Shown here one piece after another: positions 46,179 through 64,000 of a DNA stretch of 64,000 nt. Location: the NCBI RefSeq assembly GCF_022846255.1, contig NZ_AP025682.1. One strand, given 5' to 3'. This DNA is from Escherichia coli (GTDB lineage: Bacteria; Pseudomonadota; Gammaproteobacteria; Enterobacterales; Enterobacteriaceae). The number at the start of each line of letters is the position of its first letter. The stretch's first letter is position 1. The position numbers and the translations under genes were made by a program. Below the pieces are notes generated by a model that was not told the origin of the DNA, did no database searches, and worked only from the letters and a program-made list of their open reading frames with translations.

Positions 46179-46264
46179 CATTATTCTGCAAAACATGGAA
46201 TTTTGACATTAACGCCGGATGGAGATTAATCCATCCGGCAAACGCATTTATTATCTTGAATAAC

Positions 46265-47668
46265 TCAGGCCTTTGCTTCGTTGAAGCGCAGTAAACGGAA
46301 ACCTGTAGAAGCATAGATCAACGCAAATATCATCGAGCAGAAACAGAATACACAGTACGGCAAGTAACTAAACGTCGGCACGCCTAGTGTTGTCGCCATA
46401 TACAATCCGGCAGCTGACCACGGAATAATTGGCGCGCTCATGGTGCCAAAATCTTCCAGCGTTCGGGCTAAGACTAACGGTGATAAATTAAGATCTTCGA
46501 ATTTCTTCATCATCAATTCAGATATAACAATCTTATTCAAACCATCAGAACCGGTAAGTAAGTTAATGATGATCGCTAAAACACCGCTTGCCAGAATAGC
46601 GCCAAAGGCACTTTTTATTTTGTTTGCCGCACTTTGTAATGTGACATCCATCATTCCTGTTCCCGTCAGGATGCCAGCAAACATCATGGCGCAGATAATA
46701 AATGACAGGAATCCGCCCTGATTATTCAGGCCGCCTTGTTCAAGCAGTTCTTTCACAGAAGGTAACAGCGTCGTTGAATCAGTGATCATCGTCAGACGGA
46801 AACCACTCATTGTGGCCTTAATACCTTCGGCCAGCGGGAAACCTTGATACAGCCATCCAACCAATACGGCCACGAACGCACTGCTTAATAATGCCGGTAC
46901 TGTAGGCAAACGCAAAAAGGTAAAGCACAGAACAATAAGCATAGGCAGTAGCGGTAACAGACCAAACTTATATAACTCTTTGAGCTGTACCAGCATCTGC
47001 ATGCTTTCTGGTGAAATAGAGCCCGTAGAAGTATGAATCATTCCCAGCCAGGTAAAAAACAGCAGGCTAATAATCGTTGATGGGATGGTCGTCCAGAGTA
47101 GATATTTAATCAGATCATAAAGTTTAGTTTTGGTTACCGCTGAAGTCAGGTTAGTGGTATCACTTAACGGTGAAAGTTTGTCGCCAAAATAAGCCCCGGT
47201 AACAATGGCTGCCGCCAGAATTGGAAGATCGGCATGTAAGCCGGAACCGATGCCCATTAATGCAACACCAATAGAAGCGACAGATCCCCATGATGCCCCG
47301 GAAACATAGGACAATACTGCGTTCAGAAAAAACGCTATGGCATAAAGCCATGCGGGCGCAACCAGTAACATACCGTAATAAACCAGCATCGGCAGTGTAC
47401 CTGCATAGCTCCATGTCGCGACCATAAAGCCAACGAAAATAACGATAAGTACTGGTGCCATCACCGCCGAAATCTTATCGATAATAAACCCCTGGATTTC
47501 ATCCCAGGTATATTTCAGCTTAGCCATTGCAATAATGCAGGAAAACGCCGCTGAAATTAATAAACAGACGCTGGCAGGCCAGCCCATAACACCGATGCCA
47601 ACAACCAACACGATCATCATAAAAATGATCGGTGTAAGCGCGACATAAAAACTGGGTTTTTCTCTCAT
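46265..47668 (-). CDS. NhaC-family transporter (Na+/H+ antiporter-like)
   Basis: 467 aa polytopic membrane protein; 12 nt upstream of the FAD-oxidoreductase stop (same operon). Confidence 0.65.
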   Translation of the reverse strand: MREKPSFYVALTPIIFMMIVLVVGIGVMGWPASVCLLISAAFSCIIAMAKLKYTWDEIQGFIIDKISAVMAPVLIVIFVGFMVATWSYAGTLPMLVYYGMLLVAPAWLYAIAFFLNAVLSYVSGASWGSVASIGVALMGIGSGLHADLPILAAAIVTGAYFGDKLSPLSDTTNLTSAVTKTKLYDLIKYLLWTTIPSTIISLLFFTWLGMIHTSTGSISPESMQMLVQLKELYKFGLLPLLPMLIVLCFTFLRLPTVPALLSSAFVAVLVGWLYQGFPLAEGIKATMSGFRLTMITDSTTLLPSVKELLEQGGLNNQGGFLSFIICAMMFAGILTGTGMMDVTLQSAANKIKSAFGAILASGVLAIIINLLTGSDGLNKIVISELMMKKFEDLNLSPLVLARTLEDFGTMSAPIIPWSAAGLYMATTLGVPTFSYLPYCVFCFCSMIFALIYASTGFRLLRFNEAKA

Positions 47669-47682
47669 AACTTTATTCCCTG

Positions 47683-49053
47683 TTAAAAGACTTTTACGCC
47701 ATTTTGCTGTAAGCGTTCCTGTACCGTCTGAATATCTACCTGTGAAACGGTAGTGTTATTTTTAATGGCAATAGCAGCGGCAGTCCCTGCACCTTCTCCA
47801 GTGACAATACAACACCCCATATTACGGATTGTCGCGTAGGCGAAATTATCTGCATCGATTGCCCGTCCGCAAACCAACAGGTTTTCAACTTGCTGCGGAA
47901 TCATTACGCCATAAGGGATTTGAAAATAGTTCGCTTCAAGAGGTAATTTAAGATGACCATTTCCATCTATAAACTCAGGGAATACCCCTATTGAATCCGC
48001 ATGACGTCCCTCATTACAAATATCATTTTCAGTTAATTGTGTTCGCCCGAGAATATGTCTTGATTCCCTTGTTCCCACCGTCATACCGAAGTTTTTTAAT
48101 TGTGCCTGTTCAAATCCTGGCTGGAATTGACGCAACGCTTCTATCGCCTGCATGGCTTGTTTGCGGCCCTCTATTTCGGCACGCGTCAGGTCAAAAACAT
48201 CTGTACAATCAACGGCAGGGATGCTGACAACGTTCAAGTAATTCGCATCACCATACTCGGTGACCGTACTCCAGGAACCGCCTAATGTCACATCTTCAGG
48301 AATAATTCCTGCCGCCTTTCCTTTCGCAAAGACTTTACCCAGATAAGGGCTAAACATATCGCGACAAGATTCATGAACATCATAAGACCAGTTTTTATTT
48401 TCTTCATCCGCCCCCCAGTCTCCATATTTAGGTTCCGTGCTCTTAATATTTTGCATGAACGCGTTTTTATTTATATTTGCGCAACTAAAAACGGTTGTCA
48501 TACACATTAGCTCTTCGCGTTCACGCTTAATAAATGGTGCTCCGGCAAACCATGCAATATCAGCATCGCCAGTACAGTCAATAATGACATTTGCCAAAAT
48601 AGCCTGACGACCAGATTTACTCTCTGTTATTACGCCGAGTAAATTATTGCCCTGCTTGATAACATCAACGGCGGTAATGTGTAGTACGCGGCGCACACCT
48701 GCCTGTTCAAGCATTGCATCCGCAACCAGTTTGAAACGCTCGGCGTTAATAGCCTGACTATTCGATTGCGGCTCAGGGCTGGACGCCCCCATTGATTTTG
48801 CCGTTTCTTCTATTTCGCGTGCCAGTCCACCTGACTCTACCGTATTTTCATGACGCCACCAGGCAATTGACTCGACGCCAGCCGTTGTCATCATTCCGCC
48901 AAAACAACCGAAACGTTCAATCAGCATAGTAGCTGCGCCTTCACGAGCGGCACTCATTGCTGCGGCAATACCCGATGGACCACCACCAACAACTAACACT
49001 TCCGTGGTTGCCAGCACAGGTATATTACGAGCGGGTTCCAGATAAAATTCCAT
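47683..49053 (-). CDS. FAD-dependent oxidoreductase
   Basis: 456 aa; N-terminal Rossmann dinucleotide motif VLVVGGGPSGIAAAM; paralogue of the gene at 58207-59571. Confidence 0.7.
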   Translation of the reverse strand: MEFYLEPARNIPVLATTEVLVVGGGPSGIAAAMSAAREGAATMLIERFGCFGGMMTTAGVESIAWWRHENTVESGGLAREIEETAKSMGASSPEPQSNSQAINAERFKLVADAMLEQAGVRRVLHITAVDVIKQGNNLLGVITESKSGRQAILANVIIDCTGDADIAWFAGAPFIKREREELMCMTTVFSCANINKNAFMQNIKSTEPKYGDWGADEENKNWSYDVHESCRDMFSPYLGKVFAKGKAAGIIPEDVTLGGSWSTVTEYGDANYLNVVSIPAVDCTDVFDLTRAEIEGRKQAMQAIEALRQFQPGFEQAQLKNFGMTVGTRESRHILGRTQLTENDICNEGRHADSIGVFPEFIDGNGHLKLPLEANYFQIPYGVMIPQQVENLLVCGRAIDADNFAYATIRNMGCCIVTGEGAGTAAAIAIKNNTTVSQVDIQTVQERLQQNGVKVF

Positions 49054-49339
49054 ACTTTATCTCCGTATTCAATAATTGAGTAAAACAATCCCCCGCGCTT
49101 ATATAAGCGCGTTGATATTTTTAATTATTAACAAGCAACATCATGCTAATACAGACATACAAGGAGATCATCTCTCTTTGCCTGTTTTTTATTATTTCAG
49201 GAGTGTAAACACATTTTCCGCCTCCCTGGCTAATAACCACATTGGCATTTATGGAGCACATCACAATATTTCAATACCATTAAAGCACTGCACCAAAGTG
49301 AAACACTGCGACATTAAAATTATTTCAATTTGAAAAGCA

Positions 49340-51289
49340 TCAATCTGCATGCTCAACATTTGGATAGAGATTATAGATTTTAAGTTTGCGCCATAATGTT
49401 GTACGACCAATTTTTAATACTTCAGCTGCTTTAGTTAGATTCCATTCGCAGACACGACATGTATGCTCAATAGCTTGCATCTCCAATTCTGCCAGTGAAG
49501 TAAGATGAGGGATATCATCGTCGCCACTACTGTTATTTTGTCGGATATCCAGAGGAATATTCTCTAACCCGAGGACAAGTCGATTGCAGTTAATAAATAC
49601 CTTCTCCATTCGATTTTTGAACTCGGAGATGTTCCCAGGCCAACGGTACTCAAGCAGAACTGAATTTGCGTCAGGCGTGATTGTCATTTTTTTTCGAGTG
49701 CGCTCCTGATACTTATCAATAATATCGTCAATCATTTGCTTGAGATCTTCACGACGTTTGCGCAATGGCGGAATTTCAATTTCATTCATGGAGATCTCAT
49801 AATATAGCTGTCGGCTAAAAGCCCCTTGTTGCACGTACTCACGTAAAGAACTACTGGTACATGTAATCAGGCGAAAGCGTACGGGGATCAAACGATGGCT
49901 GTCTGAGCGAGTAACAAGCCCCGTTTTCAATACTTTCAATAAAACACTCTGAACTTCCCCTGATAGATATTCGACTTTATCCAGATATAAGGTGCCATTA
50001 TGAGCCAGTTCAAATTTCGATGGCGAAGGGCCAACATCAGAGCCAAGAAGTTCGTGTAAGATATTTTCTGGTGATAGCATCTGACAATCTACAGAAATAA
50101 ATGGCCCATCACGTTGCTCGCTCTCATTATGTATTGCCATCGCCAAACTCAATTTTCCCACACCTTCTTCGCCATTGATCAAAATCGGAGAGATGGATTT
50201 AATTGCCCGGCGAGCGATAAGTAATACCTGCTTCATACCACCTGAAGCCGCATGTAAACTGTCAAAGGTAAAATTTGCATTAGTGCTTATTTGCTGTTGG
50301 GCTATTTTCCTGATTTTGTCTAATGGATGAAGAAAAAGCAAAAACGAACCATCGCTTAACGGGCGAAGGGTAACCATAAGTTCAATAAATTCGCCACGGC
50401 ATTCGAGGACAATTTGCTTTTGCGATAGTTTGTTTCGTTGTGTAATTGCCTCATTCAAAATCGGCGGAAATACGAATCCTTTTCGGATGTTCTGACCAAT
50501 TAAACTTTCTTTATCAATATTCAGTAATGTTTGTGCTTGAGAATTAACCATCGTAATTAAAGAATGACTATTCCAACAAATAAAACCGTCATCCATACAT
50601 TCAATCACAGCATTATGCTGGCAAAGTACTTTGTTTATTAACTTTTGTTCATTCTCAATATAGATATAATTAGCGATTTCTGTTGCACATGAATATGATG
50701 TTTTTAATTTAACAAGCTCGGCGGTGGTTTCAATTATACATACAATGTATCCATGTATATTACCATAATAATCAATGACCGGAGCTGCGCTCATCGCATA
50801 ACAATGTAGCTGTTCACTAAAATGTTCTGCTCCTTCCAGTTGTGTATATAAATTTGTTTCCCGACAAAGACTATATACATTGGTTCCAATGCCATCTTCG
50901 GCCCATGACATACCAGATTCAATTCCTAACTCTCGCAATTGACTGGAATAATCGCCTGCTGCATTCAACGATAGAACCCAGCCGTGTGGGTCAATGATCA
51001 AAAATGCCAACCGGTCGTCACCAGCCAGGGTGAAATGGTCTTCAACAACTCTTTGTGAAATTCTAATAAACTCTTCGTTACGAGAAAAAATCGTCTGCAA
51101 TGTTTGCCCGGAAGCTTTGACAGGCGTGTTCCAGTGGCGAGGGTCACAATGCTTGAGACATTTTTGCCATGACCTCAGCATCACATGATTAGTCGAATTT
51201 GTCGCGACCCAACCATGCTTAACAAACATTTTCCATTTATTTTTTAGATCATTATGATACGACTCTTTATTCATTATAATAATATCCAT
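49340..51289 (-). CDS. DhaR-like transcriptional regulator (sensing domain + AAA+ sigma-54-interaction-like domain + Fis-type HTH)
   Basis: 649 aa; LINGEEGVGK atypical Walker A, SRQLYY and C-terminal GRTTLWRKLK HTH as in DhaR; no GAFTGA motif seen. Confidence 0.7.
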   Translation of the reverse strand: MDIIIMNKESYHNDLKNKWKMFVKHGWVATNSTNHVMLRSWQKCLKHCDPRHWNTPVKASGQTLQTIFSRNEEFIRISQRVVEDHFTLAGDDRLAFLIIDPHGWVLSLNAAGDYSSQLRELGIESGMSWAEDGIGTNVYSLCRETNLYTQLEGAEHFSEQLHCYAMSAAPVIDYYGNIHGYIVCIIETTAELVKLKTSYSCATEIANYIYIENEQKLINKVLCQHNAVIECMDDGFICWNSHSLITMVNSQAQTLLNIDKESLIGQNIRKGFVFPPILNEAITQRNKLSQKQIVLECRGEFIELMVTLRPLSDGSFLLFLHPLDKIRKIAQQQISTNANFTFDSLHAASGGMKQVLLIARRAIKSISPILINGEEGVGKLSLAMAIHNESEQRDGPFISVDCQMLSPENILHELLGSDVGPSPSKFELAHNGTLYLDKVEYLSGEVQSVLLKVLKTGLVTRSDSHRLIPVRFRLITCTSSSLREYVQQGAFSRQLYYEISMNEIEIPPLRKRREDLKQMIDDIIDKYQERTRKKMTITPDANSVLLEYRWPGNISEFKNRMEKVFINCNRLVLGLENIPLDIRQNNSSGDDDIPHLTSLAELEMQAIEHTCRVCEWNLTKAAEVLKIGRTTLWRKLKIYNLYPNVEHAD

Positions 51290-51543
51290 TCAAGTCATTT
51301 TCAGAACTTGTATCAGAATGCTATGCCAGTAAGCTTGATCAAACGCAATAATATCTAGCCTGGATCATTACAAAAACAGACCTTATCAACAATGTAATCA
51401 CACATACATTAGAAATAATAACCGTTAAAGCAATAAAAAACGAATGATACATTAGATAAATTTTAAAACTGCCAACAACATCTGAAATCTTTGCGTTTGA
51501 TATTTATAATTATTCAAACTGAAACAACACAGGCATACGAGTT

Positions 51544-51558
51544 GTTTCACTGTGAAAC
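51544..51558. promoter_or_regulatory. 15-bp palindrome GTTTCAC-T-GTGAAAC upstream of gcl-like operon (candidate operator)
   Basis: Symmetric except for the centre base; located about 110 bp upstream of the gcl-like ATG in the divergent regulator/operon intergenic region. Confidence 0.35.
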
Positions 51559-51667
51559 AGTGCAGCGAAATTTGTTCTGCCCTTTTATTTCCTCAAAGAT
51601 ATTTCATCGTTAAATTCCAAAATTGACTGACTATTCAACTCAGCGTAAATATCAGGAGAAATAATGT

Positions 51668-53407
51668 ATGGCGAGGATGCGTGCAATCGAAGCTGCAGTA
51701 GAAATACTGAAAAAAGAAGGCATTAGCGTTGCTTTTGGTGTACCCGGCGCAGCAATAAACCCACTCTATGCCGCGATGAAAAAATCAGGCGGTATTGATC
51801 ATATTCTGGCCCGTCATGTTGAGGGCGCCTCGCATATGGCTGAAGGTTACACCCGCAGTCAGAATGGCAATATTGGCGTGTGTATTGGCACATCAGGCCC
51901 TGCGGGCACTGATATGATTACCGGGCTGTATTCTGCCTCTGCGGATTCCATTCCTATTCTCTGCATTACTGGTCAAGCTCCCGTAGGAAAACTTCATAAA
52001 GAAGATTTCCAGGCCGTCGATATTGAGGCTATCGCCACGCCAGTAACCAAAATGGCTCGCACAATTCTCGAAGCGGGTCAGTTGCCGGGGATATTCCAGA
52101 AAGCCTTCTGGGAAATGCGTTCAGGCCGCCCTGGCCCGGTTCTTTTAGATCTCCCTTTTGATGTTCAGATGACCGAAATTGAGTTTGATATCGATCTCTA
52201 TCAGCCACTCACTCCCTGGAAACCCCAGGCGACGCTGGCCCAGGCCGTACGCGCATTAGAAATGCTAAATGACGCCGAAAAGCCCGTCATCATCGCTGGC
52301 GGTGGCATTATTAACGCCGAAGCGAGTGAATTGTTGCGTGAGTTTGTCGAGTTAACTGGCGTTCCCGTCATTCAAACCTTACGCGGTTGGGGCGCTTTAT
52401 CAGACGATCACCCCCTAATGATTGGTCGCATGGGATGTCAGGCGGGTCATCGCTATGGTAACGCCAGTTATCTGGCCTCAGATTTTGTTTTTGGTATCGG
52501 TAACCGTTGGGCAAACCGCCATACCGGAGCCATTGAGACCTACACCGAAGGCCGCAAATTCATTCATGTTGATATCGAACCTGCACAAATTGGCCGGATA
52601 TTTGCGCCGGATCTGGGCATTGTTTCTGATGCTGAAAGCGCCTTAACGCTATTTATTCAGGTCGCCCGTGATATGAAGTCACGTGGAGAACTGAAAGACC
52701 GCAGTCGCTGGATTGCCGAATGTGCCGAGCGTAAACGCACAATGCTTCGTCGTTCAGACTTTGACTGCAATCCAATTAAACCGCAGCGCGTGTATCACGA
52801 AATGAATAAGGTTTTCGGACCGGAGACACGCTATATTTCGACAATTGGTCTGGCGCAAATCGCCGCAAACCAATTTTTACATGTTTACCGCCCACGCCAC
52901 TGGATTAATGCCTGTCAGGCTGGGCCGCTAGGCTGGACAATGCCCGCAGCACTGGGCGCGGTAAAAGCTGATCCATCTGTTCCCGTTGTGGCAATATCCG
53001 GTGATTACGATTTTCAGTTCTTGATTGAAGAATTAGCCGTCGGCGCACAATTTAATCTTCCGTATATCCATATTTTACTTAACAACGCTTATCTTGGTTT
53101 GATTCGTCAATCACAACGTGCATTTGATATTGATTATTGCGTTCAACTGTCATTTGAAAATATTAATGCTCCAGAAATTAATGGTTATGGCGTTGATCAT
53201 AAAGCTGTGGTTGAAGGATTAGGATGTAAAGCGATTCGCGTATTCGCATCACAGGATATTGCGCCTGCACTGCAAGAAGCCCAGCGTTTGCGTGACGAAT
53301 TTCACGTACCTGTTGTTGTGGAAATTATTACTGAACGCGTGACTAATATCGCTATGGGACCTGACATTAATAAAGTCACAGAATTTGAAGAAATTCTCGA
53401 TTTATAA
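51668..53407 (+). CDS. gcl: Glyoxylate carboligase (tartronate-semialdehyde synthase), TPP-dependent
   Basis: 579 aa; N-terminus [39 protein letters not shown]...[18 protein letters not shown] nearly identical in pattern to E. coli Gcl. Confidence 0.85.
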
Positions 53408-53419
53408 GGAAACAGGATT

Positions 53420-54202
53420 ATGGCAAAGTTTGCAGCAAATTTATCTATGCTCTTTACCGAGTATCCATTTATTGAACGTTTTGCACAAGCAAGTCACGCA
53501 GGATTCCACGGCGTTGAGTATCTTTTCCCCTATGACTTTTCCGCAGATGAGTTGGTTTCGCAACTGCATCAACATAATCTGACGCAGGTTCTGTTTAATC
53601 TTCCTGCGGGTAACTGGCAAGAGGGTGAACGGGGTATTGCATGTCATCCTGGTCGGGCAAAAGAATTTCAGGAGGGCGTTTCCAGGGCAATAGAGTATGC
53701 ATTGGCCCTTAATTGTTCACAAGTTAATTGCCTTGCAGGAAAACATCCAGGTGGTTATTCGCATGAACAATGTCATGAAACACTGGTCGAAAATTTGCGC
53801 TATGCAGTAGATAAATTGGCTTCTCATGGCATAAAGTTAGTTCTGGAAGCCATTAATACAAAAGATATTCCCGGTTTTTTTGTTAACAACACCAGACAAG
53901 CTCTCAATATTATTCATGATGTAAATCATCCTGATTTTCGCTATCAATACGATATTTATCATATGCAAATCATGGAAGGGAATATTGCTACAACAATCAA
54001 AAACAACCTGAATAACATTGGACATATTCAATTAGCCGATAACCCTGGGCGTCATGAACCAGGGACGGGAGAAATTAATTACCCGTGGTTGTTAAATTAT
54101 ATAGACCAGATTGGTTATCAGGGATGGATTGGTTGCGAATATGTTCCATCTACGACAACGACTGAAAGTCTACGCTGGCTAAAAAACGAGACTCAATTTT
54201 AA
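53420..54202 (+). CDS. hyi: Hydroxypyruvate isomerase
   Basis: 260 aa; N-terminus MAKFAANLSMLFTEYPFIERF matches Hyi (TIM-barrel); directly downstream of gcl. Confidence 0.8.
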   Translation: MAKFAANLSMLFTEYPFIERFAQASHAGFHGVEYLFPYDFSADELVSQLHQHNLTQVLFNLPAGNWQEGERGIACHPGRAKEFQEGVSRAIEYALALNCSQVNCLAGKHPGGYSHEQCHETLVENLRYAVDKLASHGIKLVLEAINTKDIPGFFVNNTRQALNIIHDVNHPDFRYQYDIYHMQIMEGNIATTIKNNLNNIGHIQLADNPGRHEPGTGEINYPWLLNYIDQIGYQGWIGCEYVPSTTTTESLRWLKNETQF

Positions 54203-54219
54203 TCCCTGAGGTATTTATC

Positions 54220-55107: not shown

Positions 55108-55181
55108 TGAATTAAGGGAACCACCGGTTCCCTTCGTTCACTCATTGCCCTGCCCCATTCCCCTATTTTGAGAGACCTGCT

Positions 55182-56324
55182 ATGAAGATAGTTATCTCCC
55201 CCGACTCCTTTAAAGAATGCCTTCCTGCATGGAAAGTCGCCGAAGCGCTGGCAACCGGCTGGCGCAAGGTCCTGCCTGGCAGCCAACTGGTGTGTTTGCC
55301 CGTGGCTGATGGCGGCGAAGGCACGCTCGAAACACTCATTCATGCGACTGACGGTACGTTTTACACTAAAAAAGTCACCGGACCGCTTGGCGAATCAATA
55401 CATGCGCAATACGGTATTTTAGGCAACCAAACCACCGCAGTGATAGAACTGGCACAAGCTTCAGGGCTGGAACTGGTTTCTCCTGTCCAGCGTTCTCCCC
55501 TTTATACGACGTCGTTTGGCACTGGCGAACTTATTCTCGCCGCCCTGGAACACAATATTGATACCGTTATTCTATGCCTGGGTGGCAGTGCTACAAATGA
55601 TGGCGGTATTGGGTTGATGTCGGCACTTGGCGCATCGTTTACAGACGCCGAAGGGCTATCAGTCTCTGTTAATGGGATGGGGCTGGCGGCAATTCACCAC
55701 ATTGACTTACAGCACCTCGATCCACGATTGAAAAATGTGAAATTTATTGCGGCCTGTGATGTCACCAACCCACTAACCGGCGATAACGGCGCGACCCGGG
55801 TTTTTGCTCAACAAAAAGGGGCCAGTGCTAACGACCTTGAGCAACTGGAACAGGGAATGAAAAACTATGCCCGTTGCATCTACCGTTGTTGTGGTAAAGA
55901 CGTCGATACGATACCCGGTTCTGGGGCGGCTGGCGGCGTTGGCGCGGCCTTGATGGCTTTTCTCGATGCTCGCTTACAACCGGGTATTTCGCTCGTGCTG
56001 GAAGCGATTCAATATACCCAACATTTAAAATACGCAGCATTGGCCATTGTCGGTGAAGGGAAATTAGATAGTCAGAGCCTGAATGGCAAAGCGCCCGTAG
56101 GCGCAGCCAAAGTTGCCCAGATGATGGGCGTTCCGGTTATCGCAATTGCCGGGTATATCGATGATCAACTTGATCTGAATGAGTTACGCCAGTGTGGAAT
56201 AGAAGCCTGTTTTTCCGTCGTCAATGGTCCTTGTGATTTCCCCACCGCGCTGAGTCAGGGAGAAAATAATTTAATTCGTCTTGGGGAAAATCTGGCGGGA
56301 TATTTTCGTGCGATCCTGAGTTAA
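55182..56324 (+). CDS. Glycerate kinase
   Basis: 380 aa; N-terminus MKIVISPDSFKECL characteristic of GlxK/GarK glycerate kinases. Confidence 0.8.
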   Translation: MKIVISPDSFKECLPAWKVAEALATGWRKVLPGSQLVCLPVADGGEGTLETLIHATDGTFYTKKVTGPLGESIHAQYGILGNQTTAVIELAQASGLELVSPVQRSPLYTTSFGTGELILAALEHNIDTVILCLGGSATNDGGIGLMSALGASFTDAEGLSVSVNGMGLAAIHHIDLQHLDPRLKNVKFIAACDVTNPLTGDNGATRVFAQQKGASANDLEQLEQGMKNYARCIYRCCGKDVDTIPGSGAAGGVGAALMAFLDARLQPGISLVLEAIQYTQHLKYAALAIVGEGKLDSQSLNGKAPVGAAKVAQMMGVPVIAIAGYIDDQLDLNELRQCGIEACFSVVNGPCDFPTALSQGENNLIRLGENLAGYFRAILS

Positions 56325-56379
56325 TTCCCGTTCGTTAAAATGCCCGATAATGCAAATTACCGGGCATTCCTGAATATCA

Positions 56380-57906
56380 TTATTCATCTCTCGCGGTTTT
56401 CTCTTCAGCCGCAAGCTGTGTCAAAAAACTCTTCAATAAAATAAACACTACGCCGCAAAGCGGTAGTCCGGCCAGGATAGAGACCGTTTGTAGCGGCTGC
56501 AAACTCTGCGCATCAAGAAGATAGAGTGTGATGGCGACGATTCCAGTCATAATCAACCAAAATGCCACGTTCCAGAATGCCGGTTCACTCTCACTATCTG
56601 CCCGTTTTTGCGTCGCAAAACCGAGGGCATAACCCACAGTACAGTGTCCGGTAATATATGAAATTAATGCTATAGCCCCAAAAGCAACCAAAAACACCTG
56701 ACTTGCGGGTAGCTGCTCCAGTAAACGAGAAACGACAACGCCTCGCCCTTGTTCGTTAAGTATGGGAACAAAATCGATGACATGAGTTGTCTGCAACGAT
56801 AAGCCGAAATTAGCCAGTACCATGTAAAAAAACATGCATCCCAATGAACCTGCCAGAGCTCCACATACAATCAATTGCCGGATCGTCCTTCCTTTTGAAA
56901 TACGGGCGATAAATAAACCGAATGGGATGGCATACACGACCCACCATGAAAAATAAAATACGGTCCACATCTGTGGAAATCCGCTACGACCAATAGCATC
57001 GGTACTTAAACTCATCGCTACAAAATTTTGCAGCATCAGGCCGAGACCATCAATTGATTGATTAAGTATAAATGCCGTTGGTCCACAAATCAGTATTGCA
57101 AGTAGCATCAAAATGTCAGCACGAATATTCCAGTTACTGGCCCATGCCACACCTTTTTTAAGTCCAAAAAAGAGAATGAATAATGGCACTAGCGTCCAGA
57201 TAAAAATAACCATGACATTGATAAACTGCCCGGCAGGATCCAGATGAAACACATGGCAAAATACGGCAGAAATCATCGGCGTTCCCAGCGCCAGAGACGT
57301 TACCGCGCCGCCGAGCAAACCAAACATGTAGAAAAAATTCACACAATGCCCGCAAAAACCATCCGCACGCGCTCCCAAACATCCACGACATAAATCACTG
57401 ACCTTTAATGAGTTTGTTTTCTTAACATGCATAAACCAACCAATAGGAACGGCACAAATCAGATACCACGCCCATGCGGACGGCCCCCAATGGAACATGC
57501 CATAAGCAGAGGCCCAACGAGCAGCCTGAGCGCTTCCTGCTGTTGCGCCAAAAGGCGGTTGCTGAATGATCCAAATCCACTCTACAGAGGCCAGATATAA
57601 CAAGCTGCCCCCCGTTCCAGAAGTAAAAATAAGTCCAAGCCAGGTTAACAAGCTGAAGTCAGGTTTTTCTCCCGACTGACCTAACAAGATATCGCCATAA
57701 CGTGAGAAGGCCAGCCACAGACAACAAAGTACAACCAGAAAAATCCCGCCCATTTCCCAGGTTAAAAAATGATGTATTTTATTTATATACCGGCTGGTAT
57801 CTTGTGGATATATCGTCAAACACAGAATGATTACCGCAATAAATAATATTGCTGGGATAAACACATTCAGTTCAATCAAAGAAAAGCGTTTTTTTAAATA
57901 TTGCAT
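56380..57906 (-). CDS. BCCT-family transporter (betaine/carnitine/choline-type)
   Basis: About 508 aa from MQYLKKRF with AGGAG RBS; BCCT signature WTVFYFSWWVVYAIPFGLFIARISKGRTIRQL. Confidence 0.75.
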   Translation of the reverse strand: MQYLKKRFSLIELNVFIPAILFIAVIILCLTIYPQDTSRYINKIHHFLTWEMGGIFLVVLCCLWLAFSRYGDILLGQSGEKPDFSLLTWLGLIFTSGTGGSLLYLASVEWIWIIQQPPFGATAGSAQAARWASAYGMFHWGPSAWAWYLICAVPIGWFMHVKKTNSLKVSDLCRGCLGARADGFCGHCVNFFYMFGLLGGAVTSLALGTPMISAVFCHVFHLDPAGQFINVMVIFIWTLVPLFILFFGLKKGVAWASNWNIRADILMLLAILICGPTAFILNQSIDGLGLMLQNFVAMSLSTDAIGRSGFPQMWTVFYFSWWVVYAIPFGLFIARISKGRTIRQLIVCGALAGSLGCMFFYMVLANFGLSLQTTHVIDFVPILNEQGRGVVVSRLLEQLPASQVFLVAFGAIALISYITGHCTVGYALGFATQKRADSESEPAFWNVAFWLIMTGIVAITLYLLDAQSLQPLQTVSILAGLPLCGVVFILLKSFLTQLAAEEKTARDE

Positions 57907-57929
57907 TTCAGTCTCCTGAATGTTTTCAT

Positions 57930-58154
57930 TCAATGAGGACGAATATTTCGCCGTTCCTTTTTCATGTGTTGCAATTGTCGGGAAAGGCGTAAAGAAAAAA
58001 AGGCGCAAATAAGTGAAAGAGCCGCAATACAATACAGAGCTAAACCACGCTGATGCTGTTGCAGCATGAACAGGAATATCCCCAAAAAGAGGCCGCAGAG
58101 AACTGTGGTTATCCAGTAATTGGCACTTAAGTGCTCCAGGTCATCATCCCTCAT
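57930..58154 (-). CDS. Small two-TM membrane protein upstream of BCCT transporter
   Basis: 74 aa from MRDDDLEHLSANYWITTVLCGLFLGIFLF with AGGAG RBS 7 nt upstream; two hydrophobic helices. Confidence 0.45.
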   Translation of the reverse strand: MRDDDLEHLSANYWITTVLCGLFLGIFLFMLQQHQRGLALYCIAALSLICAFFSLRLSRQLQHMKKERRNIRPH

Positions 58155-58206
58155 GGTCTTTCTCCTGCAAGGCGCAGACAGGCTTTCAGCTCTCTGCGCC
58201 TTGTTG

Positions 58207-59571
58207 TTATGCCAGACGTACGCCCTGCTGTTGCAGCGTGTTTTGCAAATCAGGGATAGCAACCTGACGCACGGTGCAATTTTGCTGTAGCGAAACCACG
58301 GCGGCAGTACCTGCGGCCTCACCGGTAACGGCACAACACATCATGTTACGCATAGAAGTATGTGCAACTACGCCTGCGGAAATACAGCGACCGGCGACCA
58401 AAAGGTTCTCCACTTTTTGCGGCACCAGACAACCATAAGGGATCTGAAAGAAACGCCCGGTCGTTGGCAAAATGAGATAACCGGAACCATCAATAAATTC
58501 CGGGAAAATCCCTACACTGTCCGAACAACGCCCCTGATTAAGGACGTAATCATCAGCAATACGTATTTCCCCCTCAATAAGCCGTGATTCACGCGTCCCC
58601 AGCGTGGCACCAAAATTGCGTAACCGTACATTTTCAAAGCCCGGAACATAATGGCGTAGAGCGTCAATTGCCCATAATGCTTGCTGCCTTCCGGCAATCT
58701 CAGCTTTGGTTAAATCGAAGACATCGGTACAGTCAAAACCAAAGGCGTACACCATATTCATCTGGAAAGCCTCACCGCTTTCAGAAAAGGTCGACCAGGT
58801 TCCGGCAATCGCCTGGGCGTCACCTGGAATCACACCATCCTGTTGCGCGCGGGTAAAAATATCCTCCATATACGGGCTAAACATCGGGTCTTCTTTACCC
58901 GTGGTTTGAATCGTCCAGTTTTTGCCCCAATCCGCGTAGGTCGGCTTAAGTTCTTCCGCAACAAAACGGTTAAAGCGTGCCACATCAACACCTGCGCAAC
59001 TGAACATCACGGTGACGCCCATCAGTTGGTCCTTGCTCCGTTTCGTCCAGGGCGCGCCTGCACGAGCGGCAATATCAGCATCCCCCGTGCAATCGACGAT
59101 TCTTTTCGCCAGAATTGCCCCTCGACCTGATTTATTCTCGACGATAACACCGCATAACGTATTCCCGTCCTTGATCACGTCCACAACCCAGGAGTGATAT
59201 AACGGCTCAACGCCAGATTCCGTAATCATCTGATCGGCGACAACTTTAAATCCTTCAGTATCTATAACTTCGCTAATTGACTGAGGTTCTGGTCGTGTGA
59301 AGCCCAATGCTCGCGCGCGGCCTTCATATTCACGACAAATCCCTTCACAATCTTCCGTCCCCGGATGGCGATACCAGGCAAAACTTTCCACACCAACCTG
59401 CGTCAATACGCCGCCTAGTGAGCCGTAACGCTCAACAATCATGGTTCTGGCACCTAGCCGCCCCGCCGCTATCGCCGCCGTTAATCCTGCCGGACCGCCC
59501 CCGATAACCAGAACGTCCGTTTGTGCAATGACTGGCGTTTGCCGTGCACTTTCATTAATCATGTCCACCAT
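58207..59571 (-). CDS. FAD-dependent oxidoreductase (paralogue of 47683-49053)
   Basis: About 454 aa from MVDMINES; dinucleotide motif VLVIGGGPAGLTAAIAA; shared CTGDADIA and GVESxAW motifs with the paralogue. Confidence 0.7.
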   Translation of the reverse strand: MVDMINESARQTPVIAQTDVLVIGGGPAGLTAAIAAGRLGARTMIVERYGSLGGVLTQVGVESFAWYRHPGTEDCEGICREYEGRARALGFTRPEPQSISEVIDTEGFKVVADQMITESGVEPLYHSWVVDVIKDGNTLCGVIVENKSGRGAILAKRIVDCTGDADIAARAGAPWTKRSKDQLMGVTVMFSCAGVDVARFNRFVAEELKPTYADWGKNWTIQTTGKEDPMFSPYMEDIFTRAQQDGVIPGDAQAIAGTWSTFSESGEAFQMNMVYAFGFDCTDVFDLTKAEIAGRQQALWAIDALRHYVPGFENVRLRNFGATLGTRESRLIEGEIRIADDYVLNQGRCSDSVGIFPEFIDGSGYLILPTTGRFFQIPYGCLVPQKVENLLVAGRCISAGVVAHTSMRNMMCCAVTGEAAGTAAVVSLQQNCTVRQVAIPDLQNTLQQQGVRLA

Positions 59572-59588
59572 TGGTTCCCCCGTCAGAT

Positions 59589-60857
59589 TCAGGATGCGCA
59601 ATCCGCATTGTTTTGAGTGATTTCATTGACTTGATTTTTACTTTTACGATTCACACGCTGGAGGACCAGTGCGGCGATAAGGCCGATGAATGCGCAAACC
59701 AACATGAACAGGAAAACATCCTGATAACCGGCAATACCCGGTTTGCGGTCGACCATATTGCCCACCATCGTGTAGCAGTAGATTTCCGGGAAATAGGTCA
59801 GTAAAGAGATCAGACCCGCAGCAGTCCCTGTGACTTTTGCCGGGATCCGAACCTCATCAATAATTGAGAAGAACACGGCATTCGCAGAGTAAATAAACAC
59901 GCCCAACGCAACCATATTCGCCAGCGCAATAGTGACGTAGCGCGACTCACCGGGCAGGAAGAAATAAACGGTAGTAAAGACAATCATGCCGATAAAGGCG
60001 TAAATCATAAAACGCGTGCGTGACGCACAGCGGTCGGCCAGTTGTCCGCCAATTAATCCCCCCATCGCAAATAACACATAGGCGCGAAGAATACTGGCAA
60101 CTGCCACTTCCGATTCGCCCATATGCAGGATCTGCGTGAGATACGGCGTGACCATGCCAAAGCCGATATAAATTGACCACATACAAAAGGTCACAACACC
60201 TGCCAGCCAAACCGTCGGCATTTTCAGCACGAATGCCATATCTGCCAGACGGAAATTCGCTTTATCTTCGCTGTGCGTTTCATCCTGACAAACAAACCAG
60301 GCTAAAACACCGGCCAGAATAGTCACTACGGAATAAAAAATAATTGTCGCCCGTAAACCATCAACACCTTCGCCAAATTTGGCAAATACCGGCACGGAAA
60401 GAAATCCCAGTACAATGGAGGTTAATCCCTTACCCAGAAACCAGTAACCGTATAAGCGACCTTGTTCTTCGCTGGTTCCCAGGGTACGAATAATTCGCAC
60501 ACACACGGCCCAAAACGTAAATACGGTTGTAACAGCCCAAAGTGCATGTAACAAACAGATCATGGTATACGAGGGGAAGGTCGCATAATAAAAACCACTT
60601 ATCCCGGTGGAAATTAATGAAAAGGTCATTAATTTACGTGCAGAAAATCTATCGGCAGCCCAACCGCCAGGTAGATATAATAAAAAGTTCACCAGACCAT
60701 AGGCTGTCATTAGAAAACCAAGTTCAGCATTAGTCGCTCCTGTAGCCTGCTGCATCGCGTCGTAATAGGTTTCCCGTAAATAAGGCAATTTATATATTGC
60801 ACTTCCGGCAATACCACATAACGCCAGCGTGATCCAACGTTTCCAGTTACTGGTCAT
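59589..60857 (-). CDS. MFS-family transporter
   Basis: 422 aa, about 12 TM helices; between the glycerol-dehydrogenase-family gene and the FAD oxidoreductase. Confidence 0.75.
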   Translation of the reverse strand: MTSNWKRWITLALCGIAGSAIYKLPYLRETYYDAMQQATGATNAELGFLMTAYGLVNFLLYLPGGWAADRFSARKLMTFSLISTGISGFYYATFPSYTMICLLHALWAVTTVFTFWAVCVRIIRTLGTSEEQGRLYGYWFLGKGLTSIVLGFLSVPVFAKFGEGVDGLRATIIFYSVVTILAGVLAWFVCQDETHSEDKANFRLADMAFVLKMPTVWLAGVVTFCMWSIYIGFGMVTPYLTQILHMGESEVAVASILRAYVLFAMGGLIGGQLADRCASRTRFMIYAFIGMIVFTTVYFFLPGESRYVTIALANMVALGVFIYSANAVFFSIIDEVRIPAKVTGTAAGLISLLTYFPEIYCYTMVGNMVDRKPGIAGYQDVFLFMLVCAFIGLIAALVLQRVNRKSKNQVNEITQNNADCAS

Positions 60858-60922
60858 ATTTATTCCCGAATGAAGTATTTAAAATGACACCAACGGCCTG
60901 CTTTGCACAGGCCGTATTATTT

Positions 60923-62005
60923 TTAAAGTCCCAAATGATGTGCAGTTAAAATTGCACAAAGAACGTCCTGCGCTGTTACTACGAATGGCATATTATGGAT
61001 AGTTTCCCCTTCAGCAGTCGCGGCTTTAGCCACTGCCCGTAATTTATCTTTATTAATTTCCTTCACGCCTAACATATGAAGATTTGTCGGCAAGCCAACG
61101 CTATGGCAGAAATTGAGTACGGTTTCAATTTCCTCCTGTGGTGCGTTTTCCAGTACGAGCTGTACCAGGACGCCAAATGCCACTTTTTCACCGTGGTAGC
61201 AATGATGGCATTCCTCCAGTTGCGTCATGCCGTTATGAATGGCATGAGCTGCCGCCAGGCCGCTACTTTCAAATCCAATGCCGCTAAGATAGGTATTAGC
61301 TTCGATAATATTCTCTACCGCTTTGGTGCTAACACCTTGTTCAACCGCGACTTTTGCCTTATAGCCATCTTCCAGTAGCGTGGTATAACAGAGTCGGGCA
61401 ATAGCCAGTGCCGCCAGTGTCGACGCCCCACCTGCCATTGTGGCTTTTCCTGACGCCTGATTGGCTCTCGCCTCAAACCAGGTTGACAATGCATCTCCCA
61501 TACCGGCCACCAGCAGACGCACTGGCGCGGCTGAAATGACGCCAGTATCCATAATCACCATATCCGGGTTTTTCGGGAAAAACAGATATTCGCTAAACTG
61601 ACCTTCCGGGGTGTAAATTACCGCCAGAGAACTGGTTGGCGCATCTGTGGAAGCAATTGTCGGCACCACCACCACCGGAATTTTTTGGTAATACGCTACG
61701 GCTTTTGCCGTATCCAACGTTTTACCGCCGCCAATACCAATAACGACATTATATTTACGCTGATTAAATTTCTCACGAATTCGAGAAATTTCATTTTGCG
61801 AGCATTCACCACAAAAGATATCAAAATCTGCAGTAATATTTTCTTTTGCAAAGCTCTGGCTTACTCTGTCACCCACCAGACCGGTCACAAATTCATCTGC
61901 AATAATTAATGGTTCTGTTCCCAAACTCGCCGCATATGTAGCAATATTATCCAGAGAACCATTTCCCTGGATATATTTAGCCGGACTTATAATAATCTTA
62001 TCCAT
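60923..62005 (-). CDS. Glycerol dehydrogenase family (iron-containing/group III polyol dehydrogenase)
   Basis: 360 aa; GldA-like N-terminus MDKIIISPAKYIQG, GGGKTLDTAK NAD-binding motif; GAGGA RBS. Confidence 0.8.
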   Translation of the reverse strand: MDKIIISPAKYIQGNGSLDNIATYAASLGTEPLIIADEFVTGLVGDRVSQSFAKENITADFDIFCGECSQNEISRIREKFNQRKYNVVIGIGGGKTLDTAKAVAYYQKIPVVVVPTIASTDAPTSSLAVIYTPEGQFSEYLFFPKNPDMVIMDTGVISAAPVRLLVAGMGDALSTWFEARANQASGKATMAGGASTLAALAIARLCYTTLLEDGYKAKVAVEQGVSTKAVENIIEANTYLSGIGFESSGLAAAHAIHNGMTQLEECHHCYHGEKVAFGVLVQLVLENAPQEEIETVLNFCHSVGLPTNLHMLGVKEINKDKLRAVAKAATAEGETIHNMPFVVTAQDVLCAILTAHHLGL

Positions 62006-62117
62006 ATCATTCCTCGCGTAACTTGTTTTGCTTCACTGTTAACCTACTCGTTGCATCCAGTAGCGGCAAACATTTCATTCGCGAAAAATTATGTTTTATG
62101 ATCGCGCTGTAAAAAAC

Positions 62118-62133
62118 ATCATCTGCAGATGAT
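62118..62133. promoter_or_regulatory. 16-bp perfect palindrome ATCATCTGCAGATGAT in the divergent gldA-like/dhaK intergenic region (candidate operator)
   Basis: Exact reverse-complement symmetry, AT-rich flanks, between two divergently transcribed operons. Confidence 0.4.
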
Positions 62134-62330
62134 AATAAAAAACACTTTTCATGCCTTAATCACAATATATCAATATCCACGCTGGTCCCATTTCATTTTG
62201 GAACAACACAATGAATTAACTGTTTCATTATGAATCTTATTATCGTGCGATTTGTTTTATTGCGGCTGGAGAATTAATCTCGCAAGCATATTTAGCGCGA
62301 TTTACGTAATTTATCAGAACAGGAATGACT

Positions 62331-63395
62331 ATGAAGAAATTAATTAACCAGATTGATTCTGTTGTCACAGAACAAATGGAAGGACTCATCGCCACCTGGC
62401 CACACCTGCAGGCAAATTACGCGCCCCGATATGTGTGGTGCAAACAAACCGATAATGCAGTGGCGCTGATTTCAGGCGGCGGCTCAGGCCATGAACCACT
62501 GCATGCAGGTTTTGTCGGTATGGGAATGTTAACCGGTGCATGTCCTGGTGAAATCTTCACATCGCCCACACCAGATCAAATGATCGAATGTGCCAAAGCG
62601 GTTGATAATGGTTCTGGCGTTCTGTTTTTCATCAAAAATTACACTGGCGATATTCTGAATTTCGAAACGGCAGTCGAGATGTTACACGAAGAAGGCATCG
62701 CCGTTGGGACCGTCATTATTGATGATGATGTAGCGGTAAAAGATAGCCTGTATACAGCCGGACGTCGCGGTGTTGCGGGTACAGTTTTTGTTGAAAAGAT
62801 TGTCGGTGCGGCTGCACTTCAGGGATATAACCTGGGGCAGTGCGAGCAACTTGGCAAAGATGTTAACAATGCCACCCGTTCTTTTGGCATCGCACTGTCA
62901 GCCTGTACGGTTCCCGCCGCGGGAAAACCCTCATTTGAACTGGCTGATAATGAAATCGAATTTGGTGTCGGGATCCACGGTGAACCCGGCATTGAACGCC
63001 GCACTTTGCAAGATCTGAACACTTTAATCGACAGCGTGATAGCGCAATTACTGGATAATACCCCCTGGCGACGCACATTACGCCATTGGGATCGCCATGC
63101 GGGGGGATGGATTGACGCATCATCAATGAATGAGTCATTCGATCAAAATGCCGAATATATTGTGTTAATTAACGGACTTGGCAGCACGCCTGAATCAGAG
63201 TTATATGGTGTAGCCAGGGTATTTATGTGCGCCGCACAGCGCCAGGGAATTAAAATTAGCCGCCAGTTGGTCGGTAATTATTGTACATCATTAGATATGG
63301 CCGGATTTTCCATTAGCCTGCTGAAATGTACCCCAGAGTTTTTGCAACTTTGGGATGCCCCGGTCAATACGCCAGCGCTTCGTTGGGGATGTTAA
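62331..63395 (+). CDS. dhaK: Dihydroxyacetone kinase, DhaK subunit
   Basis: About 354 aa from MKKLINQ with AGGAA RBS; GGGSGHEP motif and strong pattern match to E. coli DhaK. Confidence 0.85.
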   Translation: MKKLINQIDSVVTEQMEGLIATWPHLQANYAPRYVWCKQTDNAVALISGGGSGHEPLHAGFVGMGMLTGACPGEIFTSPTPDQMIECAKAVDNGSGVLFFIKNYTGDILNFETAVEMLHEEGIAVGTVIIDDDVAVKDSLYTAGRRGVAGTVFVEKIVGAAALQGYNLGQCEQLGKDVNNATRSFGIALSACTVPAAGKPSFELADNEIEFGVGIHGEPGIERRTLQDLNTLIDSVIAQLLDNTPWRRTLRHWDRHAGGWIDASSMNESFDQNAEYIVLINGLGSTPESELYGVARVFMCAAQRQGIKISRQLVGNYCTSLDMAGFSISLLKCTPEFLQLWDAPVNTPALRWGC

Positions 63396-63407
63396 TAAGG
63401 ACATTAT

Positions 63408-64000
63408 ATGAAAATTCAAAACAAACATGTTATTGCCTGGCTGGAGAGTTGTGCTGCACATCTTACTGAACAACAAGATTTTCTAACCGCACTTGACAGA
63501 GATATTGGTGATGCCGACCACGGCCTCAATATGAATCGTGGTTTCAGTGCCGTGAAAGCGACGTTGCCCGACATTGAACGTCAGCATATTGGCAATATCC
63601 TTAAAAATACTGGCATGAAACTACTTTCCAGCGTTGGCGGTGCCAGTGGTCCTCTTTACGGCACATTATTTATTCGCGCTTCTGCGGCAGTGGGAGCCAG
63701 AACAGAATTAAGTCTGGAAGAGTGGCTGGCGTGTCTGGAAGAAGGGATTGCAGGCGTTATCGCACGAGGAAAAGCAGAACAAGGGGATAAAACACTGTGT
63801 GATGTCTGGGTTCCAGTCCTCCACGAAGCCAAAAAGAACCTGCAAGCCGGAATGTCGCCTTCCCTTCTGCTGAATACGATGGTGCAAGATGCGGCAACAG
63901 CCGTCGATAACACCATCAATATGCAGGCGAAAAAAGGACGTGCCAGTTATCTCGGCGCTCGCAGTGTGGGCCATCAGGATCCAGGCGCGACCTCCTCCTG
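63408..64000 (+). CDS. dhaL: Dihydroxyacetone kinase, DhaL (ADP-binding) subunit, 3'-truncated by window edge
   Basis: Starts MKIQNKHVIAWLESCA with DRDIGDADHG motif; ORF runs off the end of the window. Confidence 0.8.
   Translation, partial: MKIQNKHVIAWLESCAAHLTEQQDFLTALDRDIGDADHGLNMNRGFSAVKATLPDIERQHIGNILKNTGMKLLSSVGGASGPLYGTLFIRASAAVGARTELSLEEWLACLEEGIAGVIARGKAEQGDKTLCDVWVPVLHEAKKNLQAGMSPSLLLNTMVQDAATAVDNTINMQAKKGRASYLGARSVGHQDPGATSS

Follow-up and report, generated by a model that had tools for sequence, protein, structure and literature searches.

Positions 46265-64000 of the Escherichia coli DNA analysed here (a stretch of 64,000 nucleotides, referred to below as the window) contain a catabolic gene island that is almost certainly the GimA locus, the carrier of ibeA, and hence a locus that is already known rather than new. 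We consider it fairly probable, judging from the sequence, that the four units of GimA form one regulon of the DhaR type, which would be switched on when dihydroxyacetone (DHA) is phosphorylated. Two observations argue for a single regulon and against chance juxtaposition, i.e., the recurrence of the reordered gene set across genera, and the presence of paired palindromes common to the island promoter regions. The recurrence of the gene set and the common paired palindromes, as a putative operator, are what is new here; the locus itself is a textbook island of extraintestinal pathogenic E. coli.

Identity and distribution of the island

The island was identified as GimA because its position between yjiD and yjiE, its GC content of ~46% and its operon content agree with the published description. 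GimA is described as a 20.3-kb cluster of 14-15 genes between yjiD and yjiE, with 46.2% GC, that is mostly restricted to phylogroup B2 (PMC2878320; PMC4359115). Its four operons, ptnIPKC, cglDTEC, gcxKRCI and ibeRAT, were annotated in 2001 as serving carbon-source metabolism and transport (PMC2878320); the operon names used here are from that source, and the assignment of single gcx, cgl and ptn gene letters to open reading frames (ORFs) was inferred by us. The GimA loci of RS218, UTI89, APEC O1 and BEN2908 (Huang et al. 2001; Homeier et al. 2010, PMC2878320) have the same insertion point, ~46% GC, the same four operons and the gene content found here, and there is no essential difference between the present allele and these reference loci, its nearest match being strain MS20657. 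The block is thus the GimA of phylogroup B2/F-type E. coli, a foreign-looking insertion of ~20 kb between hypT and iraD.

A preliminary description of this DNA had noted a lower GC content and a gene order that leaves that of K-12 after hypT, and both hold: the GC content is 45.6% at 46265-64000 and 50.8% at 1-46264, with values from 39.6% to 51.8% in single island genes and 31-36% in island intergenic regions. The hypT (yjiE) gene ends at 46178 and the island starts at 46265, whereas in MG1655 iraD (yjiD) and hypT overlap convergently, iraD overlapping the 3' end of hypT, with nothing inserted between them. An inverted repeat (GCCGGATGG/CCATCCGGC) lies at 46214-46239, inside the left-junction spacer. 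All of the genes listed in the preliminary description were recovered in the same places and on the same strands using the ORF listing and curated family models. It had, however, counted three transcription units, and we find four, dhaK-dhaL-(DhaM::EI) being a separate unit. The window holds 13 complete island genes plus a truncated dhaL, the last gene and the right junction lying outside it. In the closest genome the right part continues with the gene for DhaM::EI, followed by iraD, with ~2.4 kb of island beyond the window end.

When 18 kb of the island was used as a query against E. coli chromosomes, the best match (99.4%) was in strain MS20657, and the matching records annotate ibeA, dhaR, gcl and a BCCT transporter. 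The ibeA allele shares 98-99.9% identity with those of complete E. coli genomes; the gene was found in 246 of 5426 of these, always on the chromosome and in single copy. At least 80% of the 18-kb block was also present in 246 of the 5426. Since the two counts match, the island is apparently kept or lost whole.

The annotation of the closest genome shows no tRNA, integrase or insertion-sequence elements, or direct repeats within the island or next to it. This agrees with Homeier et al. 2010 (PMC2878320), who reported no mobility genes or tRNA at the flanks of GimA and argued that the locus is ancestral within B2. A foreign origin is suggested solely by the GC content and by a greater identity to copies in Vibrio than to the paralogues of the host (Gcl 80%, GldA 76% and CglE 73-78% for Vibrio; Gcl 70%, DhaK 59% and DhaR 33% for K-12); the latter is what would be expected if the unit was of foreign origin.

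It had also been envisaged that the island might prove to be an already characterised locus of this species, such as an allantoin/glyoxylate plus dha locus. It is indeed a characterised locus, GimA, but its identity with the K-12 allantoin/gcl or dha locus was rejected: the genes are paralogues with 33-70% identity, there are no all genes, and the K-12 loci lie elsewhere in other company. The K-12 allantoin regulon (gcl-hyi-glxR ... glxK) has the same four enzyme families, and the order gcl-hyi-glxR, in common with the island. However, the proteins are 48-70% identical (Gcl 70%, Hyi 55%, GlxR 63%, and 48% for the glycerate kinase against GlxK), the kinase gene directly follows glxR in the island, none of allA/B/C/D/E or allR/S is in or beside it, and there is a putative DhaR-type operator upstream. 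With the K-12 dhaKLM-dhaR locus the island shares curated matches to DhaK, DhaL and DhaR, the DhaK motifs, a regulator lacking GAFTGA, and paired palindromes. It differs in that the proteins are paralogues (DhaK 59%, DhaL 57%, DhaM 37.5%, DhaR 33%), that DhaM is fused to EI, and that its regulon seems to include a glyoxylate pathway, flavoenzymes and carriers as well as a glycerol dehydrogenase. The dha regulon of Klebsiella and Citrobacter (dhaD, dhaK, dhaR, dhaB and dhaT, for anaerobic glycerol dissimilation) resembles the island in its clustering of a dehydrogenase, a DHA kinase and a DhaR-type regulator; the island, in contrast, lacks glycerol dehydratase and 1,3-propanediol dehydrogenase and has carriers, PF12831 flavoenzymes and gcl genes instead.

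Recurrence of the gene set and paired palindromes

Whether the island occurs as a unit elsewhere was a question raised in the preliminary description, and comparative genomics shows that the combination recurs, with changed order, in several genera. The set comprising gldA, dhaKL plus DhaM::EI, gcl-hyi-glxR, a PF12831 flavoenzyme and carriers of the BCCT, MFS or NhaC type is found reshuffled in Citrobacter, Vibrio and Pseudovibrio. Citrobacter freundii has the arrangement seen in E. coli in another chromosomal context, whereas Citrobacter sp. NCU1 has gcl-hyi-glxR-glxK, a reversed dhaMLK, and gldA-small ORF-cglE-MFS. In Serratia sp. S1B an MFS gene and gldA are divergent from dhaKLM-ibeA-nhaC. 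Vibrio jasicida has BCCT-cglE(78%)-FADox-cyclophilin-like-NhaC-PatB-like lyase-ibeA(68%) ... gldA / dhaKLM / regulator / gcl, where FADox is a second flavin adenine dinucleotide (FAD)-dependent oxidoreductase and percentages are identities to the E. coli proteins. Vibrio sp. VB16 has gldA / dhaKLM-porin-BCCT-cglE(73%)-FADox-cyclophilin-like-chemoreceptor-gcl-hyi-glxR-regulator, while in the alphaproteobacterium Pseudovibrio stylochi gcl-hyi-glxR ... gldA-dhaK-dhaL-dhaM::EI-cglE(55%)-MFS lie on a single strand. The flavoenzymes of these islands fall into two orthologous groups, an IbeA type that is always accompanied by an NhaC-type carrier, and a CglE type that is accompanied by BCCT and/or MFS carriers. 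Adjacent copies of the ibeT-type NhaC gene and the ibeA orthologue were seen in Citrobacter, Serratia and Vibrio, and on a metagenome contig.

A second and distant PF12831 gene, encoding about 425-450 amino acids and 23-27% identical, comes after the CglE-type gene of the marine islands (V. jasicida L002/L003, 5038-6784; VB16 L095, 11444-13109; P. stylochi L008, 11402-12676). In both Vibrio islands a cyclophilin-like protein of 124-126 amino acids comes next; E. coli lacks both of these extra genes and has a 74-residue membrane protein instead. Between the NhaC-type carrier and the IbeA orthologue of V. jasicida (L002, 8789-9961) lies a pyridoxal phosphate enzyme resembling C-S lyases of the PatB/MalY type (309 bits; cut-off 340). 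Its presence there is a hint that the substrate of the IbeA/NhaC pair might be amino-acid-like and possibly S-substituted.

The regulator of the island, IbeR, is of the DhaR type and is 33% identical to K-12 DhaR over 462 amino acids. A perfect TGTTTCA-N3-TGAAACA palindrome occurs only once in the window, at 51543-51559 between ibeR and gcl, and is also present in the dhaK-dhaR intergenic region of K-12 and the ibeR-gcl region of C. freundii. When up to three mismatches were allowed, there were nine matches in the 64-kb window, six of which lay inside three island intergenic regions. In simulations of these three regions the mean number of matches was 0.16, and none of 3000 runs reached six. 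The six sites form three pairs with a spacing of 32-33 bp (49289/49321, 51510/51543 and 62189/62221), compared with 31 bp for the pair in K-12, and no pair arose in any of 300 shuffled windows. Comparable pairs were seen in both Vibrio islands, where they precede BCCT, gcl and gldA/dhaK, and in Citrobacter NCU1, where they precede cglE. We propose that the palindrome is a putative DhaR/IbeR operator. An element considered in its place, GAAACA-N16-TGTTTC, proved to consist of the outer half-sites of two neighbouring palindromes, and was replaced by the TGTTTCA-N3-TGAAACA pairs.

Control by sigma-54 was rejected. No -24/-12 promoter (TGGCAC-N5-TTGC) was found in the island intergenic regions, the total for the window being under the chance level, and IbeR lacks the GAFTGA motif that contacts sigma-54, reading HELLGSDVGPSPSKFELAHNGTLYLD at that place. 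Both results fit an activator of the DhaR type that is dependent on sigma-70. The name ibeRAT implies simple co-transcription of the three genes, but ibeA-ibeT may have a regulated promoter of their own, because the 286-bp gap between ibeR and ibeA (49054-49339; 35% GC) holds the degenerate DhaR-type pair as well as a perfect palindrome of 18 bp, CGCGCTTATATAAGCGCG, at 49094-49111.

Several points weigh against a single regulon controlled by IbeR. The ibeA-proximal pair is degenerate, with three mismatches per site; the operator motif was derived from these very sequences and is matched to K-12 by position alone; and the sites could also be used by the host's core DhaR. In Serratia sp. S1B no gcl genes occur within 10 kb of the cluster. 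Most of the IbeA relatives with 46-53% identity, in marine Alpha- and Gammaproteobacteria, Chloroflexi and Desulfobacteraceae, lack dha or gcl nearby and have as neighbours aminotransferases, MttB-like methyltransferases, betA/betB and ABC transporters; the flavoenzyme family is therefore not generally tied to DHA. In addition, the phenotypes published for GimA concern invasion, type 1 fimbriae, biofilm and resistance to H2O2 and other stress (including PMC4359115).

Some of these points would suit a patchwork of independent modules that are merely adjacent, i.e., a spare glycerol/DHA regulon, a spare glyoxylate-glycerate pathway and two unrelated transporter-flavoenzyme pairs. K-12 has a stand-alone and well understood counterpart of each module, gcl is missing from the Serratia cluster, many genes of the IbeA family occur with neither module, and the GC content varies widely among the island genes. 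We nevertheless regard a patchwork as unlikely, since the combination recurs reshuffled in Citrobacter, two Vibrio species and an alphaproteobacterium, operator-like palindromes are paired at gcl, gldA/dhaK, ibeA and, in Vibrio, BCCT, and ibeA and at least 80% of the block are present in equal numbers of E. coli genomes. The preliminary description had read the enzymes as converging on the routes from glyoxylate to phosphoglycerate and from DHA to DHA phosphate; coupling of the modules is supported by the recurrence and the paired palindromes.

The flavoenzymes, the proposed pathway and a candidate substrate

Both FAD oxidoreductases of the island belong to family PF12831 over their full length. 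The preliminary description had found their role and substrate not obvious, and the literature likewise treats IbeA as an FAD-binding flavoprotein without an assigned substrate. No signal peptide is present in IbeA, whose GxGxxG motif starts at residue 23 and whose AlphaFold2 model has a pLDDT of 94.7. Residues V19-G23-G25-G28 are invariant in 52 sequences, and Cys191 and Cys414-Cys415 (IbeA numbering) are invariant in the close subfamily. In the PDB there was no sequence relative beyond the FAD motif and the fold neighbours were generic, while a literature search on PF12831 yielded no characterised member. The two-domain FAD fold is shared with flavin-dependent amine, opine and sarcosine oxidases, and with soluble flavoenzymes resembling fumarate reductase; like catabolic amine oxidases, members of the IbeA family in other taxa lie beside uptake carriers and aminotransferases.

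IbeA has more than 4700 homologues. Among the matches listed, relatives that are 46-56% identical (68-69% in Vibrio and Photobacterium) occur widely among free-living marine bacteria and metagenome-assembled genomes (MAGs), those at 46-56% being mainly from marine Rhodobacteraceae, Halieaceae, SAR86, Endozoicomonas, Chloroflexi and Desulfobacteraceae. Their genes typically adjoin a BCCT or Dpp-type uptake system together with a class V/III aminotransferase, an MttB-like methyltransferase or betA/betB. Such surroundings suggest, without being specific, that the substrates may be small zwitterionic or quaternary-amine compounds and the product a carbonyl. In three Halieaceae MAGs (L032, L040 and L042) the IbeA-family gene is beside betA (choline dehydrogenase, above cut-off), betB (betaine-aldehyde dehydrogenase) and a gene for a protein of the alkaline-phosphatase superfamily, with a TonB-dependent receptor and a BCCT-like carrier also near in L040 and L042; this choline-linked context is unlike the enteric one. 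A 205-kb contig of a Candidatus Lokiarchaeota MAG (L023, 5847-7247) carries an IbeA-family gene whose product is 47% identical to the E. coli protein, reflecting either horizontal transfer into the archaeon or a binning artefact. Plasmid-borne homologues in Sulfitobacter and Roseovarius have uninformative contexts.

These properties bear on the view of GimA as a pathogenicity island, which holds that IbeA is an invasin, located at the surface or secreted, with vimentin, PSF and Caspr1 of the host as binding partners and invasion of brain endothelium as its effect, and that the metabolic genes do no more than modulate this by carbon source. A large literature describes lowered invasion or virulence of ibeA, ibeT and ibeR mutants and interactions with the host receptors, and GimA is enriched in neonatal meningitis and avian pathogenic E. 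coli. Yet the entire IbeA chain is one PF12831 flavoenzyme fold, with a Rossmann GxGxxG motif near its start and no signal peptide, and the protein is described in papers citing Paris et al. 2024 as a homodimeric FAD-binding protein implicated in resistance to H2O2. RefSeq, which keeps the gene name ibeA, calls the product an intracellular-survival FAD-dependent oxidoreductase. The relatives listed are common among marine bacteria that live freely and MAGs, mobility genes and tRNA are absent from the locus, which has been argued to be ancestral within B2 (PMC2878320), and virulence phenotypes can follow indirectly from metabolism or redox state. We therefore think it very unlikely that the island exists to deploy an invasin. 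The question matters because ibeA is among the virulence markers most often used to type meningitis-causing, avian and Crohn's-associated E. coli, and its product is a cytoplasmic-looking flavoenzyme. If the island is one DHA-sensing catabolic regulon that E. coli has in common with Vibrio and Pseudovibrio, metabolism would explain the invasion, fimbriation and peroxide phenotypes better than would a surface invasin.

We also find it highly doubtful that IbeA and CglE are redox-defence enzymes, such as thiol- or peroxide-linked reductases, in a stress-response locus under IbeR: ibeA, ibeR and whole-GimA mutants are more sensitive to H2O2, IbeR has been described as an RpoS-like stress regulator, and the invariant cysteines and a weak similarity to thioredoxin reductase and AhpF would be compatible with such a role, but that similarity is confined to the FAD-binding N-terminus, where it covers the dinucleotide-binding motif only, and the tight conserved pairing with uptake carriers and catabolic operons is typical of a catabolic first step.

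Returning to a single catabolic regulon, from the gene identities, the paralogy to K-12 loci, the conservation of the gene set and the common operator motif we infer IbeR binding, induction by DHA, a flavoenzyme reaction and a type of substrate, as follows. GimA would serve the catabolism of one or a few small polar compounds, taken up by three secondary carriers of the BCCT, MFS and NhaC (IbeT) types. The first conversion would be carried out by the cytoplasmic PF12831 enzymes, i.e., IbeA, paired with IbeT, and CglE, paired with the BCCT and MFS carriers, and its product would probably be a carbonyl. In a C3 branch the GldA-like dehydrogenase would interconvert glycerol (or glyceraldehyde) and DHA, which DhaK and DhaL, with a self-sufficient DhaM::EI fusion, would phosphorylate to DHA phosphate at the expense of phosphoenolpyruvate. 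In a C2 branch two molecules of glyoxylate would be converted by Gcl to tartronate semialdehyde, with which Hyi would equilibrate hydroxypyruvate, and tartronate semialdehyde would be converted to glycerate by GlxR and then to phosphoglycerate by the kinase. In K-12, according to the summary of Bachler et al. 2005 given in PMC5890353, DhaR is activated by DhaL-ADP and antagonised by DhaK. IbeR would likewise be switched on by DhaL-ADP while DHA is being phosphorylated and off by free DhaK, and would act at the paired TGTTTCA-N3-TGAAACA sites upstream of ibeA, gcl/ibeR and gldA/dhaK, with sigma-70 promoters.

The idea that one imported substrate is split into C2 and C3 units is supported in part but unproven. 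One form of it, with IbeA and CglE as ether- or acetal-cleaving flavoenzymes acting on betaine-lipid head groups or zwitterionic glycerol conjugates, is a long shot, its best candidate substrate being glycerylcarboxy-hydroxymethylcholine (GCC; C10H21NO6), the deacylated head group of the microalgal lipid DGCC (PMC10362313). In the published structure of GCC an acetal carbon bears a carboxylate, choline and glycerol (PMC10362313), from which we deduced that the compound is an acetal of glyoxylate with glycerol and choline. A single oxidation beside an ether oxygen might then release a choline-type quaternary amine, glycerol or glyceraldehyde, and glyoxylate. The quaternary amine would fit uptake by a BCCT carrier, and the presence of betA/betB beside the family in Halieaceae; glycerol or glyceraldehyde would enter GldA and DhaKLM, and glyoxylate the Gcl-Hyi-GlxR-kinase route. 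GCC was put forward because these three classes of product correspond to the capacities that recur as a set in E. coli, Citrobacter, Vibrio and Pseudovibrio. Its link with the island is speculation, and it is not obvious where E. coli would obtain such a compound in the gut or at extraintestinal sites; literature searches combining DGCC or BCCT with glyoxylate or DHA kinase revealed no such link, and none to bacteria. If GCC were the substrate, the famous "invasin" would be an enzyme that scavenges nutrients and has a marine or host-associated origin. Given one DHA-sensing regulon, its operator sites and DHA signal, with a short list of candidates, would make the question of which substrate IbeA oxidises directly testable.

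Individual genes and minor observations

The features of the island are collected in Table 1.

Table 1. Coordinates in the window of the island genes, left junction and palindrome pairs. Bracketed values are curated NCBIfam cut-offs.
Feature	Position	Strand	Evidence or remark
Left junction	46179..46264		86-bp AT-rich spacer after hypT stop
ibeT, NhaC-family carrier, 467 aa	46265..47668	-	TIGR00931 379.9 (370); RefSeq name nhaC
ibeA, PF12831 FAD-dependent oxidoreductase, 456 aa	47683..49053	-	Pfam E 3e-93, full length
Palindrome pair, ibeR-ibeA gap	49289..49337		Degenerate DhaR-type, 3 mismatches each, 32 bp apart
ibeR, DhaR-type regulator (sensing domain, PAS, AAA+, helix-turn-helix)	49340..51274	-	NF008485 985.8 (551)
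Palindrome pair, ibeR/gcl divergent region	51510..51559		TTATTCAAACTGAAACA + perfect TGTTTCACTGTGAAACA, 33 bp apart
gcl (gcxC), glyoxylate carboligase paralogue	51668..53407	+	NF008431 1076.9 (791)
hyi (gcxI), hydroxypyruvate isomerase family	53420..54202	+	TIGR03234 388.5 (353)
glxR (gcxR), tartronate semialdehyde reductase	54220..55107	+	TIGR01505 384.6 (340.75)
Glycerate kinase (gcxK)	55182..56324	+	TIGR00045 547 (168)
BCCT-family carrier (cglC), 508 aa, ATG at 57906	56380..57906	-	RefSeq name BCCT family transporter
Small membrane protein, 74 aa, two hydrophobic segments	57930..58154	-	ORF translation
cglE, second PF12831 FAD oxidoreductase	58207..59571	-	Pfam E 2e-97, full length; 51% identical to IbeA
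MFS carrier (cglT)	59589..60857	-	Weak similarity to anion:cation symporter and organophosphate antiporter families
GldA-like glycerol dehydrogenase (cglD)	60923..62005	-	NF006941 560.7 (336)
Palindrome pair, gldA/dhaK divergent region	62189..62237		CATTTCATTTTGGAACA + TGTTTCATTATGAATCT, 32 bp apart
dhaK, DHA-binding subunit of PEP-dependent dihydroxyacetone kinase (PEP, phosphoenolpyruvate)	62331..63395	+	TIGR02363 460.4 (406.25)
dhaL, ADP-binding subunit	63441..64000	+	Truncated at window end; 57% identical to K-12 DhaL

In the gcl unit, the Gcl copy of Vibrio with 80% identity is that of strain VB16. The Hyi of the island also scores above the cut-off for 2-oxo-tetronate isomerase (375.6 vs 325), and the glycerate kinase is under the cut-off for both the 2-kinase and the 3-kinase equivalogs. 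In the dha unit, which is divergent from gldA, the motifs GGGSGHEP, YTGDILNF and GIHGEPG of DhaK align with those of the K-12 protein. In the closest genome (L001, 23458-26442) the continuation of dhaL is followed by a gene for a 793-residue DhaM fused to a full enzyme I (EIIA-HPr-EI), a domain set also found in the Vibrio, Serratia and Citrobacter copies. The dehydrogenase CglD scores 516 against the GldA equivalog of the K-12 type, under its cut-off of 700.

In the cgl unit, the best model for CglC is the CaiT carnitine/gamma-butyrobetaine antiporter (385.6; cut-off 541), TIGR00842 gives 354.5 (cut-off 407.55), and an 88% orthologue has a PF02028 match, unmarked; on these matches, CglC is likely to be a member of the BCCT family. 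The Vibrio orthologues of CglE cited above (73-78% identity) adjoin a BCCT gene. In Pseudovibrio (25% identity, E 1e-36) and Citrobacter NCU1, homologues of the MFS carrier are encoded after cglE-type genes. The 74-residue protein is kept beside CglE-type genes in C. freundii (71% identity) and Citrobacter NCU1 (38%), and had no match among curated family models or in PHROGs, a library unsuited to such proteins.

Compared with MS20657, 15 nucleotides (five codons, making up one near-repeat copy, ACCAGAAAA...) are absent from the cglC gene at ~57734, in-frame and near the N-terminus, and there is a 1-nucleotide indel at ~60920, in a terminator-like hairpin between the MFS gene and gldA. Upstream of the island, kptA (RNA 2'-phosphotransferase), placed at ~42.1-42.6 kb of the window by collinearity with L001/L090, is annotated as frameshifted in the closest complete genome.

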